A stretch of DNA of 64,000 nucleotides, taken from positions 448,001 to 512,000 of the forward strand of contig CAWBNQ010000005.1 of assembly GCA_963790205.1 (NCBI GenBank). Reading direction: 5' to 3'. Under the pieces are notes generated by a model. It ran no database searches and was not told the DNA's origin. It was given only the letters and a program-made list of their open reading frames with translations. Origin of the DNA: Nitrospirota bacterium. Lineage in GTDB: Bacteria > Nitrospirota > UBA9217. Below are positions 34,811-43,142 of the stretch, piece by piece. The translations under genes were made by a program, and so were the position numbers. The first letter of the stretch is position 1, and the number at the start of each line of letters is the position of its first letter.

Positions 34811-35443
34811 TTAATGATGTCCGCCGCCGCCCCCGCCCGTTCCGCCGAAGAATTTACGGTCCATCCAGTTGAGCCCGCCCATCATGAGCCCCATGGCGAA
34901 GAAGCCGCCCGTCGGCATGATCGCGATGAGAAGCGGCTTTCCGGGCAGGATCTGGGCGCCCCACAGCGAGCCTTTACCCAGGAATTCCCTGAACACTCCC
35001 AGTAACATCAGGGCAAGGAGAAAACCGACGCCCATTCCAACGCCGTCAACGAAGGATGGAATGAGCTTGTTCTTGCTTGCGAACATCTCGGCCCGGGAAA
35101 GAATGATGGCAAAAGCGACGATCAACATGATGTAAAGACCCATGTCCTTGTACACCGCCCGCTCGTTCGCCGACATCCACAGATCTATCACCGTAACCCA
35201 GGTCGCGGTGATGAACACGTAGGAAGGAATGCGGACTTTCGGATTTATGAAGTTCCTCAACAGAGAAACCGTAACGTTCGTCATGGTCATGACGAAGAGA
35301 ACGGCGACACCCATCAGGAAGCCGTTTTTCACGCCGGAGGTCACCGCAACGGCGGGGCAGAGCGAAAGCGCGAGCCGGAAAACCGGATTCTCGCCGAACA
35401 CGCCATTCTTGAAGAGCGTACCCAAGCTTACGTTATTGCTCAC
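34811..35443 (-). CDS. rnfE: Rnf complex subunit E
   Basis: ENPVFRLALSLCPAVAVT, KVRIP and FREFLGKG. Confidence 0.93.
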   Translation of the reverse strand: MSNNVSLGTLFKNGVFGENPVFRLALSLCPAVAVTSGVKNGFLMGVAVLFVMTMTNVTVSLLRNFINPKVRIPSYVFITATWVTVIDLWMSANERAVYKDMGLYIMLIVAFAIILSRAEMFASKNKLIPSFVDGVGMGVGFLLALMLLGVFREFLGKGSLWGAQILPGKPLLIAIMPTGGFFAMGLMMGGLNWMDRKFFGGTGGGGGGHH

Positions 35444-36033
35444 TTCGCCACCCCCTGTGCAACAGCGGTCTTGATGCCTGCGCCGTACTTGTCAACGAGC
35501 AGCTGCACGGCGTCCTTCACTCCGTTCGTCACGCCGCGGCTCGAATACGTGGCCCCGGACACGGCCTGGATGTTTTCCTTGGTCTCGCCCTTGATAAGAA
35601 CGATCTGCGGAAGCGACTTGCCTTTGAACTGGTCGAGAAAGCTTTTTTCCAGGACCTGGTCGCCCAGGCCGGGCGTCTCGTTCATATCAAGAACCTTGAC
35701 ATCGCTGATTTTCATGTCGGGACCGAGCGCGACAAGCATCTTGATATAGCTCGAATATCCTTTCCCCGTTGTTTCTGCGATATCGGCTATCGGGATCCCG
35801 CCGGCAGTCGCCTGGTAATATTCATGTTCTTTGTTGTCGGCTGCTTTCCACGTGCCGGCCGGTTTGATGGGATCGGTTGCCGTTGGCGCCATCTCCTTCA
35901 GCGCCTCTTCCTTTTCCTTCTTTTCCGCCTGGACCCGGATGGGGTGGGTATATTGATAGGTCACGGCCATGATGACACCTGCCACGACGAAAATTACCAC
36001 CAGAGGAAGCGTTATCTTTATTATATCCTTCAT
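35440..36033 (-). CDS. rnfG: Rnf complex subunit G
   Basis: ETPGLG and FMN attachment motif SGATYSS. Confidence 0.93.
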   Translation of the reverse strand: MKDIIKITLPLVVIFVVAGVIMAVTYQYTHPIRVQAEKKEKEEALKEMAPTATDPIKPAGTWKAADNKEHEYYQATAGGIPIADIAETTGKGYSSYIKMLVALGPDMKISDVKVLDMNETPGLGDQVLEKSFLDQFKGKSLPQIVLIKGETKENIQAVSGATYSSRGVTNGVKDAVQLLVDKYGAGIKTAVAQGVAK

Positions 36034-37061
36034 TTCTTCACCGCCTTTGCCTCGGCTTTGCCGAACACAGGGCTTTTCATTCCCCGGTCAAGAAGCGGGG
36101 CGAAGCAGTTCATGAGGAGAATGGCGAACATCACGCCCTCGGGGTAGCCGCCTTTTAAGCGGATCAACGTCGTCAGGATGCCCGCGCAGACGCCGAATAC
36201 GACCTGGGCGCTCCTCACCGAGGGTCCGGTGACGTAATCGGTCGCCATGTAGAACGCGCCGAGAATGAGGCCGCCCGACATCATGTGAAGGATCGGGTCG
36301 CCGGTCATGAGACCCTCTTTGCCGCCGAAGATCCAGGTGAGGATGCCGACCGTTGCGATGAACGAGATGGGAATGTGCCAGGTGATGTACCGTTTCAGCA
36401 TCAGGAACGTCGCGCCCAGAAGGAGCGCGATGACGGACGTTTCACCGAGAGAGCCGGCGCGGTTCCCGAGGAACAGGTCCCGGTACAGGGCCCCCTGGCT
36501 ATGGTACACTTCAAGGAGCTTCGACATCCCTTCTTCCTTCAGGAGGACGAGCGGCGTGGCCGTGGTCTTGGCATCAATCGCCATGAACGAGGTCACCGGC
36601 GCAACAAAGGTGGTCATGATCTTGGCGAAGCTGACCAGGACGAACGCCCTGCCGATGAGGGCAGGATTGAAGATATTGAAGCCCAGCCCTCCGAAGAGCT
36701 GCTTGGCGATGACAACGGCCACGACGGACGCGACAGCAGGGATGTACAGCGGCGCATTGGCCGGGAGGTTCATGGCAAGGAGCAGTCCTGTCAGAAACGC
36801 GCTGCCGTCGGAGAGGGTAATGGGTTTTTTCAGCATCCATTGTACGAGCGCCTCGGATGCAAGGGACGTCGCAAGGCAGACGAGAATGACCATGATAGCC
36901 GGCATGCCGAAATAATACACCGACATGAGCGTTGCCGGCAAAAGCGCTCCGCTCACGGTCCACATGATCTTGGCCGTGCTCTCCACGTCGTGCATGTGGG
37001 GCCCGATCGAAACAATCAGTTTCGGCGGTTCTTTTGGCTGTGCCTGTACGGATGCTTCCAT
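36030..37061 (-). CDS. rnfD: Rnf complex subunit D
   Basis: KQLFGGLGFNIFNPAL, TTATPL, GSLGETS and MATDYVT. Confidence 0.95.
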   Translation of the reverse strand: MEASVQAQPKEPPKLIVSIGPHMHDVESTAKIMWTVSGALLPATLMSVYYFGMPAIMVILVCLATSLASEALVQWMLKKPITLSDGSAFLTGLLLAMNLPANAPLYIPAVASVVAVVIAKQLFGGLGFNIFNPALIGRAFVLVSFAKIMTTFVAPVTSFMAIDAKTTATPLVLLKEEGMSKLLEVYHSQGALYRDLFLGNRAGSLGETSVIALLLGATFLMLKRYITWHIPISFIATVGILTWIFGGKEGLMTGDPILHMMSGGLILGAFYMATDYVTGPSVRSAQVVFGVCAGILTTLIRLKGGYPEGVMFAILLMNCFAPLLDRGMKSPVFGKAEAKAVKK

Positions 37062-37079
37062 TCGTTTATCCCTCGATAT

Positions 37080-37152
37080 TCAGATGTCAGATGTAGGATG
37101 TCAGACGTTCAGAATTTGTTCTACTCAGTCTGAACTTTGTACTTTGAACTTA
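37080..37152. repeat. Heptamer repeats between rnfC and rnfD
   Basis: cagatgt cagatgt aggatgt cagacgt ... tgaactt tgtactt tgaactt. Confidence 0.65.
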
Positions 37153-38484
37153 ATTCTTTTTCTTCGCCAGCTCTTTCTTCGCTTTTTTCACCCATTGAAC
37201 CATGGGGCGGTTCGCCGGGCAGACGAAGGTGCAGGAGCCGCACTCAAAACAGTCCATCAGATTATACGCCTTGGCGTCTTCGTAATGGCCCTTCTCGATG
37301 TACAGCCCAATATAGGAAGGCTGAAGCTTCATGGGGCATGCATCGATGCATCTGCCGCACCGGATGCAGGGCCCATAAGGCTTGGTGCTCACCTCGTTCT
37401 TCGGCAGGACGGTGATACCTGAAGTGCCTTTGATGACCGGCACGTCAAGCGTGTACTGGCTCATGCCCATCATGGGCCCGCCGGCGATCACCTTGGCTGC
37501 CGCATCGGTGAGTCCGCCCGCTTCGTCGATGAGCTGGGAAAAGGGTGTCCCGATCCTGGCTACAAAGTTCTTCGGCTCCTTGACGCCCCTGCCGGTCACC
37601 GTGACATAGCGCTCGATAAGAGGCCTGCCGTAGCGGACCGCAGTAGAGATCGCTTCAGCCGTACCCACGTTCTGGACGACCACACCTACATCCATGGGCA
37701 GGGAACCCGCAGGTACGGTCCTGTTGGCAATGGCTTTAATAAGCATTTTTTCCGCGCCCTGCGGGTACTTCACCTTGACCGGCCATACTTTGATTTCCGG
37801 GGACCCGGCCGCCGCCTTGGTCATGGTTTCAATGGCGTCGGGCTTGTTGTTTTCTATACCGATATAGCCCTTCTGGACACCGAGGATCCTCATGAGAATT
37901 TTGAGGCCTTCAATGATTTCTTTCGGCCGCTCAAGCATGAGCCGATGGTCCGAAGTCAGGTAGGGCTCACATTCGGCGCCGTTCAGGATCACGACGTCGA
38001 TCGGCTTTTCTTTGGGTGGAGCGAGCTTCACGTGCGTGGGGAACGTGGCCCCGCCCATGCCGACTATGCCGGCATCCTGCACGATCTTCTTGAGTTCATC
38101 GGGACTCAACAGATTGTAATCGGTATTTTCCTTCAGCCCTGCGATCCACTCGTCTTTGCCGTCGCTTTCGATCACGACAGCCGGAACATTTATGCCGAGC
38201 GAGTGCGGGAAACTCCCCAGAGCGGTCACCTTGCCGGATATTGAGGCATGGACCGGAGCGGAAACAAAACCGGTGGTTTCACCGATCTTTTCTCCTTTTT
38301 TAACTTCCTGCCCTATGACGACGAGCGGCTTGGTAGGTGCTCCGATGTGTTGGCTTAAGGGGATGACGGCTCTCTTGGGGATTGCTGCGGGGACGGTCGG
38401 TTTGTGTGCTGAGAGATGTTTGTTACCAGCGGGATGCACACCCCCGCTGAACGTATCGTGTGCCTTTATCGTTGTGGCTTCCAT
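37150..38484 (-). CDS. rnfC: Rnf complex subunit C
   Basis: GIVGMGGATFPTHVK, NGAECEPYLTSD, KYPQGAEK and two 4Fe-4S motifs. Confidence 0.96.
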   Translation of the reverse strand: MEATTIKAHDTFSGGVHPAGNKHLSAHKPTVPAAIPKRAVIPLSQHIGAPTKPLVVIGQEVKKGEKIGETTGFVSAPVHASISGKVTALGSFPHSLGINVPAVVIESDGKDEWIAGLKENTDYNLLSPDELKKIVQDAGIVGMGGATFPTHVKLAPPKEKPIDVVILNGAECEPYLTSDHRLMLERPKEIIEGLKILMRILGVQKGYIGIENNKPDAIETMTKAAAGSPEIKVWPVKVKYPQGAEKMLIKAIANRTVPAGSLPMDVGVVVQNVGTAEAISTAVRYGRPLIERYVTVTGRGVKEPKNFVARIGTPFSQLIDEAGGLTDAAAKVIAGGPMMGMSQYTLDVPVIKGTSGITVLPKNEVSTKPYGPCIRCGRCIDACPMKLQPSYIGLYIEKGHYEDAKAYNLMDCFECGSCTFVCPANRPMVQWVKKAKKELAKKKN

Positions 38485-40670: not shown

Positions 40671-41315
40671 CTATTCCTTCCACCCGTGGTTGCCGATGAG
40701 AGGGACGAATACACAGGGGATGCTTTTCTGTGTTACGGTTCCTTCCGCGGTCTTGACCAGCTTCAGGAGTGACTGCCCGAACCGCTCTCCAACGGGGATC
40801 ACCATCCTGCCGCCTTCTTTCAACTGCTCCACGAGCATCGCCGGTATCTCGGGCGCACCGGCAGTGACCATGATGGCGTCAAAAGGCGCCATTTCCTTCC
40901 ATCCGTAGGTGCCGTCGTAAACCTTGATCGCCACGTTCTGGTATCCCAACCGGTCAAGCGTGGCCCTGGCCTTTTCCGCGATGGTTTTGATGCGTTCCAC
41001 GGTATAAACCTTGCTGCACAGCTCGGCGAGGACAGCCGCCTGGTAGCCCGACCCTGTGCCGATCTCGAGCACACGCTCAGTACCGGTGAGGCCGAGGAGT
41101 TCGCTCATAATCGCCACCATATAAGGCTGGGACATGGTCTGGCCCTCGCCGATGGGAAGGGCGTTATCGGCATAGGCCATACCGCGGATGGCCTCGGGCA
41201 GGAACTCATGGCGCGGTACTCGACGCATGGCGGCGAGAACGCGTTCGTCTTTGATGCCGCGGCCGACGATCTGATCGTCCACCATGCGGCGGCGCTCCTT
41301 CTCCTCGTTCGTCAC
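40671..41315 (-). CDS. pcm: Protein-L-isoaspartate O-methyltransferase
   Basis: VPRHEF, GQTMSQPY, VLEIGTGSGYQAA and FVPLIG. Confidence 0.96.
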   Translation of the reverse strand: MTNEEKERRRMVDDQIVGRGIKDERVLAAMRRVPRHEFLPEAIRGMAYADNALPIGEGQTMSQPYMVAIMSELLGLTGTERVLEIGTGSGYQAAVLAELCSKVYTVERIKTIAEKARATLDRLGYQNVAIKVYDGTYGWKEMAPFDAIMVTAGAPEIPAMLVEQLKEGGRMVIPVGERFGQSLLKLVKTAEGTVTQKSIPCVFVPLIGNHGWKE

Positions 41316-42082
41316 TCCCCGCGTACCGTCGATAGCACGTAGGACATATTTTCAAGCGGTTTCAGTCTGTCGAAGGATGAATAATCGGTAAAATCGAGAT
41401 GGAGGGGCGTGACGGAGATCATCTTGCGGTCAACGGCATCGAGGTCCGTCCCCTCTTCCCGCTCCCAGTCCGGTTCTCCCCCGCCGATCCAGTAGTATTT
41501 CTTGCCGCGCGGGTCGACGCGCTCCACCGTCATCTGATGGTAAATGCGTTTGCCCAGTCGGGTGATGCGCGTTCCCTGGATCTCTGAGAGCGGAACATTC
41601 GGGACATTGACATTCAGGAGCGTACCTGCAGGTATTCCTAGTTCGAAGATCTGAACGGCCGTACGGAAGGCCACTTCGGCAGCTTCGGCAAATTTGAAAT
41701 TCTCACGCGCCGCGAGCGAAACAGCGAAGGACGAAATGCCGAGCAATATGCCCTCGATGGCGCCGGCAACAGTCCCTGAATAGGTTACGTCGTCCCCCAG
41801 GTTCGGCCCCTTGTTGATGCCCGAAACCACGAGTTTCGGCACCTCTTTGAGCAGCCCCTTCACCGCGATGTTCACGCAGTCCGTGGGCGTACCGTTGACA
41901 CTGTATACGGATTCTTTTATTTCCTCGATGAGGAGCGGCCGGTGCAGGGTCATGGAATGGCCTGCCGCGCTCCGCTCGCGGTCAGGGGCCACAATCACGA
42001 CCTCATCGAGTTCGCGAAGCCGCCTGGCTAGTATTTGAATACCGGGGGAATAGACCCCGTCGTCATTGGTTACGAGAATCAT
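41312..42082 (-). CDS. surE: 5'/3'-nucleotidase SurE
   Basis: MILVTNDDG, GTPTDCV, SGINKGPNLG and YSGTV; start ATG 42082. Confidence 0.96.
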   Translation of the reverse strand: MILVTNDDGVYSPGIQILARRLRELDEVVIVAPDRERSAAGHSMTLHRPLLIEEIKESVYSVNGTPTDCVNIAVKGLLKEVPKLVVSGINKGPNLGDDVTYSGTVAGAIEGILLGISSFAVSLAARENFKFAEAAEVAFRTAVQIFELGIPAGTLLNVNVPNVPLSEIQGTRITRLGKRIYHQMTVERVDPRGKKYYWIGGGEPDWEREEGTDLDAVDRKMISVTPLHLDFTDYSSFDRLKPLENMSYVLSTVRGE

Positions 42083-42129
42083 ACAGAATATACCGTTCAA
42101 ACCCTAAAAAATACCGTCACGGGCGGTCT

Positions 42130-42981
42130 CTACTTTTTCTTTTTCAGCTCGGTACCGATTGCCTGATCAAGTTCCTGAAGACTACGAAGTTGAACAAGTT
42201 TCCCATTCACGAACACCGTGGGTGTACCGGGAACCCCTGCCTGGCTGCCTTCATTCATGTCTCTGTAGATGATGCTTTGCAGTGCCGGATCGTTCATGTC
42301 GCGGTTGAACGTCTCCATGTTCAGTTTTAGTTCCCGTGCGATTTCCTGGATTTTTTCGTCGCTGAGACTGTTCTGCTCCTCGAATAGTTTATGATGAAAC
42401 TCGCGGAATTTCCCCTGTCGGGCTGCCGCCAAGGCGGCCGTTGCGGCCTTGCGGGCATACGGATGCATGGGGAGCGGGAAATTCTTGAACACCAGCTTTA
42501 CATCCTTTTTGTATTTTTCCAGCAACTGCTGGAGGGGCGGCTCAAGCCGCGCACAGTATGGTCATTGGTAATCGCTGAATACCACAAGCGTGACCGGCGC
42601 GTTCTTCGGGCCTTCGAACGGCAATCCTTCCAAAGAAAAATGCTGGACAGTTTCCAATTGAATGATCTTCAGGGTCTTTTCCGCGCTGCTTGATACAAGC
42701 AGTGTGTTGTCCGGCGCGGAATAGGTCAGCCGGTCGAAGGTCTTATCAACAGGGATCCGGCTCATCACCTTGTCATCAGCGATGGAATAGACGAGGATTT
42801 CTCCGGACGTGAGAACGTATATCCATTTGCCGTCTGCCGATGGCGCAACATCAGTCGGCGCTGCTTCAAGCTTCAGCTGTTTTTTGACGGTCCACTCTAT
42901 TTCGGCAAAAACAGAGTGCGGTGTAAAAAACGTGATTGAAAACAGAGCCAAAAGTATCCCTGCAAGCGTTCCTCTTCTCAT
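42130..42981 (-). CDS. Secreted DsbA/thioredoxin-fold selenoprotein (283 aa, Sec at UGA 42564-42562)
   Basis: ORFs 42562-42981 and 42130-42525 are in frame; readthrough gives VVFSDYQ-U-PYCARLEP...VFKNFPLPMH...GVPGTPTVFVNG; hairpins follow the UGA. Confidence 0.88.
42518..42550 (-). promoter_or_regulatory. Candidate bacterial SECIS
   Basis: GCGGC-UUGA-GCCGC at +12 to +25 and UCCAGC-AGUU-GCUGGA at +29 to +44 after the UGA. Confidence 0.55.
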
Positions 42982-43026
42982 GAGACGTGTCTCCTTATCA
43001 TGAAGTTATTCTTTTCTGGATATTCC

Positions 43027-43057
43027 AAAAAAAAGGCCCGGAGGGTGTCCGGGCCTT
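43027..43057 (-). terminator. Intrinsic terminator after tRNA-Pro
   Basis: AAGGCCCGGA-CACCC-TCCGGGCCTTTTTTTT. Confidence 0.85.
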
Positions 43058-43065
43058 GTGAAAAA

Positions 43066-43142
43066 TGGTCGGGGCGAGCCGATTTGAACGGCCGACCACT
43101 CGCACCCCAAGCGAGTACGCTACCAGACTGCGCCACGCCCCG
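43066..43142 (-). tRNA. tRNA-Pro(GGG)
   Basis: CGGGGCGTGGCGCAGTCTGGTAGCGTACTCGCTT-GGG-GTGCGAGTGGTCGGCCGTTCAAATCGGCTCGCCCCGACCA. Confidence 0.97.

Follow-up and report, generated by a model that had tools for sequence, protein, structure and literature searches.

A probable selenocysteine-containing ScsC-type oxidoreductase with a two-blade propeller fragment predicted to form a ring

Our analysis of 64,000 nt of DNA from a Nitrospirota bacterium (assembly GCA_963790205.1, contig CAWBNQ010000005.1, positions 448,001 to 512,000; hereafter the window) points to a likely exported ScsC-type oxidoreductase that would carry selenocysteine (Sec) in its active site and two blades of a beta-propeller in front of its catalytic domain. 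Judged from structural models, the propeller fragment would join three or four chains in a ring, and the assembly would act as a disulfide isomerase or reductase; for this complete reading we see the balance as even. We lean slightly towards the proposition that a natural two-blade fragment closes a homo-oligomeric ring by strand exchange between chains, with three or four Sec sites, in a family where Sec and Cys appear to have been swapped repeatedly in Sec-capable genomes.

The gene and its surroundings

The initial annotation described a hidden selenoprotein gene, split in the ORF track by a TGA on the first Cys of a thioredoxin CxxC, and this description holds (Table 1). The sole in-frame TGA is codon 140, within FSDYQ-U-PYC, and an ORF finder (table 11) cuts the gene into pieces of 139 and 131 aa; 3' of the TGA, the frame stays open through FPLPMH (residues 168-173) and GTPT (residues 252-255). 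Residues 140 and 143 are the only Cys/Sec residues in the protein.

Table 1. Positions, in the window, of the gene, its parts and the elements next to it.
Feature	Position	Strand	Remarks
Whole gene	42130..42981	minus	283 codons + TAG, ATG at 42981, single TGA read through
Likely Sec-pathway signal peptide	42904..42981	minus	residues 1-26, inferred cleavage after VFA, no lipobox Cys
Two-blade YVTN/YncE-like beta-propeller fragment	42643..42903	minus	residues 27-113, strand order d-abcd-abc
N-terminal outer strand	42862..42903	minus	residues 27-40, unpaired in both monomer models (DSSP)
DsbA-fold catalytic domain, ScsC/alpha-DsbA2/BdbD type	42133..42636	minus	residues 116-283
In-frame TGA	42562..42564	minus	codon 140, position 1 of U-P-Y-C active site
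Hairpin 1, loop UUGA	42537..42550	minus	conserved, covarying in TGA relatives, weaker than hairpin 2
Hairpin 2, predicted SECIS	42518..42533	minus	6-bp stem, loop AGUU, -8.7 kcal/mol
GTPT	42217..42228	minus	Thr before predicted cis-proline
Shine-Dalgarno-like AAGGAG	42990..42996	minus	read from sequence, shortly 5' of ATG
Terminator-like hairpin	43033..43057	minus	between tRNA-Pro and gene; consensus match only

The placement of the gene between tRNA-Pro and surE was also correct: a tRNA-Pro(ggg) lies upstream at 43066-43142 and surE (Pfam SurE) lies directly downstream, its start 30 nt further on. No sigma-70 consensus promoter was found for the gene. This context is not conserved, though, as neither clustering across 107 loci nor a Pfam scan of 81 of the 155 flanking ORFs returned a conserved neighbourhood; surE adjoins the gene in three close relatives, and a PhoH-like gene and other neighbours occur in single lineages. 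The neighbours thus being local, we rejected a functional link to surE or tRNA-Pro. The lack of a conserved neighbour fits a general envelope enzyme and points to no substrate.

At the Desulfobulbales-type loci (L047, L051, L053, L057, L062 and L064) the gene lies directly 5' of the PhoH-like gene. On the minus strand of the window, surE and an L-isoaspartate methyltransferase-like gene, the latter named from its translation, form a downstream pair at 40671-42100, and Rnf-like electron-transport genes, also named from translations, occupy 35440-38484. As to expression, what turned up were scattered RNA contigs of relatives, all in one metatranscriptome.

Very probable decoding of the TGA as selenocysteine

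The genome that holds the gene (4.34 Mb, 98% complete) has the selABCD set that the initial annotation had expected elsewhere in it. Adjacent selA and selB genes are on contig C8 and selD, with a TGA of its own, is on C2, all three over their cut-offs, and tRNA-Sec(UCA) is encoded twice, by genes that differ from each other and each pass the Rfam cut-off. The combination that marks a SelB-decoded selenoprotein, a UGA aligned with the Cys of homologues together with selA, selB, selC and selD, is therefore found here. One tRNA-Sec copy (C8:121701-121799, L006) is near selAB; the other (C1:656899-656993, L007) has a weakly paired variable arm and lies 3' of a gene that we take to resemble the selenium-metabolism gene yedF. 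On contig C5, at position 203803 (minus strand), a further in-frame TGA in a GrdB-like context (PG-U-GIC) probably belongs to another selenoprotein.

Among 23 other genomes with the TGA form, selA is present in 19 (6 of 8, one frameshifted, and 13 of 15). The four TGA-form genomes without selA have selB in one case, tRNA-Sec and a TGA-containing selD in another and only the TGA-containing selD in a third, while the fourth, 63% complete, has none of selB, tRNA-Sec and TGA-containing selD. As many as 32 of 33 carriers of a stop-free gene have selA, so loss of the machinery does not by itself explain the Cys forms.

Relatives with Cys and with TGA at this position, which the initial annotation had proposed to look for, were both found at full length. 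Full-length TGA orthologues, 55-69% identical, occur in 7 of 36 genomes of the same family, and across the phylum the TGA is kept in 9 of 9 full-length places (8 of 251 genomes, including the one studied here), with one TGA each. Of 401 genomes from the phylum that includes Desulfurivibrio, 57 gave matches, in 59 places; after nine were left out as catalytic-domain-only or partial, the 50 retained places comprised 15 with TGA and 35 stop-free, and the stop-free loci that could be read (n=18) have TGC or TGT at the Sec column. The position of the TGA is shared by 60 distinct relatives and invariably falls in the column of the catalytic Cys. Reads with TGC or TGT had been named as counting against a selenoprotein; assembled contigs that span the codon, from two public runs of different studies (X1, possibly the source sample, and X4), keep the TGA unchanged. 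The public runs that hold the gene best are peat metagenomes, and a database protein labelled Nitrospiraceae is 62% identical. Near-identical copies of the gene, both with the TGA, lie about 3 kb apart in one genome (G014:C30:32247-33065 and 35427-36245; L120 and L010), with an RHS-domain ORF upstream of one of them.

In protein databases the Sec form is held as truncated proteins of about 140 aa, mostly unnamed or hypothetical, and of 120 short database entries that carry this N-domain, 119 stop immediately ahead of the Sec codon. The 120 database homologues have Cys (88), Trp (30, as WPYC) or Ser (2) at the Sec column. When metagenomes were searched with a pattern allowing TGA or TGG, TGA was found in 122/122 of the matches listed and TGG in 0/122. 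Judging the 30 Trp entries by these pattern matches, we take it as probable that each stems from a TGA translated with a different code; a genuine Trp variant was set aside as improbable on this ground. The N-domain is present in 40 of the 122 listed matches. The other 82 (L151-L272), UP[YF]C matches that lack this N-domain or are incomplete, fall into several groups with downstream hairpins of their own, that is, other DsbA-like selenoprotein subfamilies. Two full-length homologues, P0049 and P0067, have SPYC, with one Cys only, and may be chaperones or single-Cys variants. A quick tree of 88 sequences needs 11 changes between Sec and Cys, at least three of which are forced by well-supported branches.

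Both hairpins that had been noted after the UGA were recovered, the second with its AGUU loop beginning 34 nt after the UGA, as described. The bSECIS consensus, in the portion of PMC13188914 available, comprises a loop of 3-9 nt with G within its initial two positions, a stem of 4-16 bp, a spacing of 16-37 nt and an MFE of -7.5 or lower, and hairpin 2 agrees with the consensus given there in full. All six of its pairs are formed in 56 of 60 TGA relatives against 3 of 44 Cys relatives, counts that come from related sequences and hence are not independent; under synonymous recoding, full pairing would be expected in 1.4 of 60. Overall, 98.9% of its cells are paired, the loop G is invariant, and one pair flips between C-G (36) and G-C (24), altering an amino acid too. 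Hairpin 1 is fully paired in 35 of 60 TGA and 2 of 44 Cys relatives (83.7% of cells paired), covaries at two pairs and has its G at loop position 3. Taking the two hairpins together, none of 500 shuffles attained the observed covariation, and pairing fell from 92% to 33-45% in slid controls. SelB, we infer, binds the AGUU hairpin, leading to insertion of Sec, and we hold it to be almost certain, from the genomic evidence, that the TGA encodes Sec. Three Cys-form genes (L039, L127 and L135) retain a fully paired SECIS-like hairpin, possibly marking recent changes from Sec to Cys.

Probable export and the catalytic domain

A likely signal peptide, in line with the one assigned to the protein earlier, lies at residues 1-26, with a hydropathy peak of 2.7 and a conserved mature start, and 107 of 120 homologues have a hydrophobic stretch within their first 40 aa. 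The protein is thus very probably exported, as far as can be told from sequence.

The catalytic domain matches Pfam Thioredoxin_4 (E 1.9e-27) and DSBA (E 2.1e-25), and the AlphaFold2 model of the full protein, with U modelled as C, has a pLDDT of 93.4. Its best structural matches are 3gyk, Caulobacter ScsC, Wolbachia alpha-DsbA2, BdbD and Proteus ScsC (Z 21.6-23.2), with Z 22.9 to 7rgv, 22.6 to 6eez, 22.6 to BdbD and 21.3 to the monomeric ScsC of Salmonella. The earlier call of a DsbA domain was therefore right as to fold, but the structural matches place it in the ScsC/alpha-DsbA2/BdbD type and not in that of E. coli DsbA. Just ahead of the cis-Pro, 97 of 121 sequences have Thr, 10 have Ile and one has Val, with 13 unparsed. 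No NCBIfam model reached its cut-off for the protein or for the Cys homologue P0008; NF041057 (Rcas_1661 thioredoxin-like (seleno)lipoprotein) scored 73 bits against a cut-off of 190, and 56 for the Cys homologue, and the lipobox cysteine of that family is lacking in the protein. Taken together, the Sec machinery, the TGA relatives, the hairpin, the signal peptide and the DsbA fold support the exported Sec-dependent oxidoreductase that the initial annotation had implied.

The propeller fragment and a predicted ring

The roughly 90-aa segment before the DsbA domain, earlier described as beta-propeller-like, proved to match the propellers 1l0q and YncE over two blades. A profile of this N-domain hit 1l0q with E 1.1e-38. 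Foldseek likewise put 1l0q first (TM 0.76, rmsd 1.8) and also listed Pizza2, Bagel2 and Cake2, all with E above 0.001; YncE aligned with Z 9.8 (rmsd 2.1, 83 aligned, model range 2-85) and the designed Pizza2 with Z 9.2 (77 of 89 residues, rmsd 2.1). The profile matched no second gene in the genome, and when it was run against 1.84 billion representatives the best 150 were only large multi-repeat propeller proteins, with no added family members.

Folded alone, the N-domain gave a model (pLDDT 92.7) with seven paired strands, abcd and abc, preceded by an extended, unpaired segment that has a pLDDT of about 91 and a conserved hydrophobic pattern. It is all-beta in both models, and in almost every one of 92 sequences both faces of its core strands are hydrophobic. 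A complete ring within one chain was not seen, there being two blades only. In superpositions with closed propellers, the first strand falls on the outer strand of the preceding blade, and the last blade is without exactly that strand; since the one fits the slot missing in the other, chains could assemble head to tail into a ring. Mean-field DCA (327 sequences, Meff 185) gave 0.88 for the diagonal between the N-terminal and the last strand, where known neighbouring strands gave 0.6-1.4, which makes the score uninformative about the pairing between chains. The closest solved propellers are, we take it, mostly seven-bladed, and a seven-bladed ring is not exactly reproducible by two-blade units, which counts against the ring reading. 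On the models we nevertheless regard a homo-oligomeric ring as fairly likely. Two-blade pieces of seven-bladed WD40 propellers form eight-bladed tetramers, according to the part of PMC6805158 at hand, which favours a tetramer over a trimer here.

Proposed mechanism and alternatives

In the mechanism that we propose, the TGA would be read as Sec through SelB at the AGUU hairpin and the signal peptide would send the chain to the periplasm. Each chain would contribute two blades, its N-terminal strand completing the three-stranded blade of the next chain, and the ring would close as an eight-blade propeller (tetramer) or a six-blade one (trimer), with the catalytic heads attached. By analogy with ScsC, a CcdA/DsbD-type membrane protein would keep the oligomer reduced, and the Sec selenolate would attack wrong or oxidised disulfides of envelope proteins, to be resolved by Cys143.

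By the same analogy, the reductase/isomerase direction seems to us quite probable. Neither Pfam (0 matches each for DsbB and VKOR) nor tblastn with the VKOR-like and DsbB genes of relatives found these oxidases in the 98%-complete genome, and four DsbD_TM matches, CcdA-sized in appearance, are present; the two observations together favour a reductase or isomerase. Sec, moreover, lowers redox potential and so favours reduction. These same points weigh against the exported selenoprotein, mono- or oligomeric, working instead as a DsbA/BdbD-like dithiol oxidase that is reoxidised by an undetected partner or by small oxidants, a role that we consider unlikely, judging by analogy, even though the scores of BdbD and of monomeric Salmonella ScsC match those of the isomerases, a distinct DsbC-like gene is present in the genome, and one group of Cys-form carriers (5 genomes) has strong VKOR matches. 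Among 30 carrier genomes, DsbB was matched in 4 and VKOR in 9 (7 over the cut-off), either of them in 11 and neither in 19. Where DsbB does occur in two relatives, its gene adjoins a different DsbA gene (read directly for one), and the VKOR that was read is fused to a DsbA domain of its own (L277, in the Cys-form carrier G280). No multidomain partner of the ScsB/DsbD type and no scs neighbours were seen in the genome. Besides the DsbC-like gene, the genome has a second, propeller-less DsbA-like TGA gene, so that an isomerase role is not required of the gene studied here. Removal of the trimerisation domain of PmScsC abolishes isomerase activity and yields an oxidase (PMC5524982, partial text). 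ScsC proteins in cells, in the portion of PMC11634996 available, have both oxidase and reductase activity whatever their oligomeric state, and for this reason the call on direction is not a firm one.

The two blades might, alternatively, be a docking module that completes the propeller of a partner or binds a specific substrate, with no homo-ring being formed. Their exposed hydrophobic faces in the models do need some partner, which need not be another copy of the same chain, but the d-abcd-abc order is self-complementary, no neighbouring gene is conserved and no second N-domain match exists in the genome, making docking an improbable choice. We are more doubtful still about an oligomeric or monomeric protein for metal handling, of Cu(I) as in ScsC, or a reductase reserved for a single client in the periplasm (apocytochromes or selenoenzymes, for instance), either of which would have little general isomerase activity. 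This reading could draw on the binding of Cu(I) by CcScsC (PMC8900818, as far as its available text goes) and on the position of the propeller-less TGA paralogue just 5' of a cytochrome c peroxidase-like gene (motif), and yet no scs, copper or cytochrome-maturation context recurs in the 81 neighbour ORFs. Gene callers do split the gene, as they would if the TGA were a true stop or an error and the locus a pseudogene or two separate genes; such a split would run through the middle of the active site and break up the thioredoxin fold, and with 60 relatives keeping the TGA and a hairpin that covaries despite amino-acid changes we find this hardly credible. The propeller-less paralogue (UPHC, short; C14:84713-85366) is of a type frequent within the same family, and its hairpin is a different one. 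This genome also carries, at C3:129288-131752, a cytoplasmic DsbA-like (CTWC) gene in three near-identical tandem copies, of which the first is truncated.

Relation to known proteins

UxxC selenoproteins of DsbA-like and DsbG-like kinds have had a place in catalogues since 2006 or earlier (PMC1794560 and PMC13188914, both from partial texts), in line with the initial annotation, which had also held the architecture to be unfamiliar. For the Sec form this second point needs refining. Supplement file 1 of deep-Sep (PMC12013277, seen in part) has six 'DsbG-like' sequences, Thioredoxin_4 with UxxC, a combination that is found in our protein as well, and four of the six, one of them from Desulfosarcina ovata oXyS1, share by eye the signal peptide, the two-blade segment and UPYC. 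With Sec members, judged by eye, already predicted in that supplement, as far as it was available, as 'DsbG-like protein', the selenoprotein itself is not new. The class label is generic, and our protein falls outside NF041057, the lipoprotein family that serves as the label's reference model. The claim of an unfamiliar architecture so far stands for the propeller module: in a literature search with most subscription papers outside its range, no account of a DsbA/ScsC protein with a propeller fragment came up. A check of PMC13188914, PMC13326102 and PMC12013277 (main texts) and of the deep-Sep supplements did not turn up the word 'propeller', and the one paper found to join the terms DsbA, propeller and oligomer concerns, in its available part, DsbI, a DsbB-type protein (PMC7089426). 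The two-blade module and its predicted role in an oligomeric ring thus appear to be undescribed so far for an ScsC-type enzyme.

Whether a Dsb enzyme works as an oxidase or an isomerase is believed to depend on its oligomeric state. The N-terminal modules described in the papers considered are helical stalks (ScsC) and DsbC-type dimer domains, and a propeller ring would, if true, be a third solution and a new oligomerisation scaffold for periplasmic disulfide isomerases, in anaerobes that mostly have no DsbB or VKOR matches. It would likewise be a natural instance of an oligomeric two-blade propeller fused to an enzyme, and would show in a living organism the fragment-oligomer stage that has been suggested for the evolution of propellers. 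Sec and Cys versions that match each other exist in Sec-capable genomes, including cultured Desulfosarcina, Desulfomarina and Desulfurivibrio, which makes the benefit of Sec in an exported enzyme testable.

The nearest relatives in catalytic fold are the trimeric ScsC proteins of Proteus mirabilis (4xvw) and Caulobacter (7rgv) and Wolbachia alpha-DsbA2 (6eez; Z 21.6-22.9, rmsd 1.8-2.1), which also share a CxxC-type site, a Thr before the cis-Pro (its cis geometry being inferred) and an N-terminal extension. That extension is alpha-helical in ScsC and alpha-DsbA2 (PMC8900818, in the part available), whereas here it is a beta-propeller fragment. At about 25% identity, those proteins use Cys where ours would use Sec, and no scs neighbours were seen around ours. 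YVTN/YncE beta-propellers (1l0q, 3vgz) have the same blade pattern and fold, but with a whole propeller per chain instead of two blades. The two-blade oligomers compared here are engineered or lectins, RSL being a natural lectin with a two-blade oligomeric propeller. Designed Pizza2, Cake2 and Bagel2 and the WD40 two-blade tetramers (PMC6805158, partial text) are likewise built on a two-blade unit, while the unit described here occurs naturally in fusion with an enzyme, consists of two unlike blades and has an assembly that is predicted.
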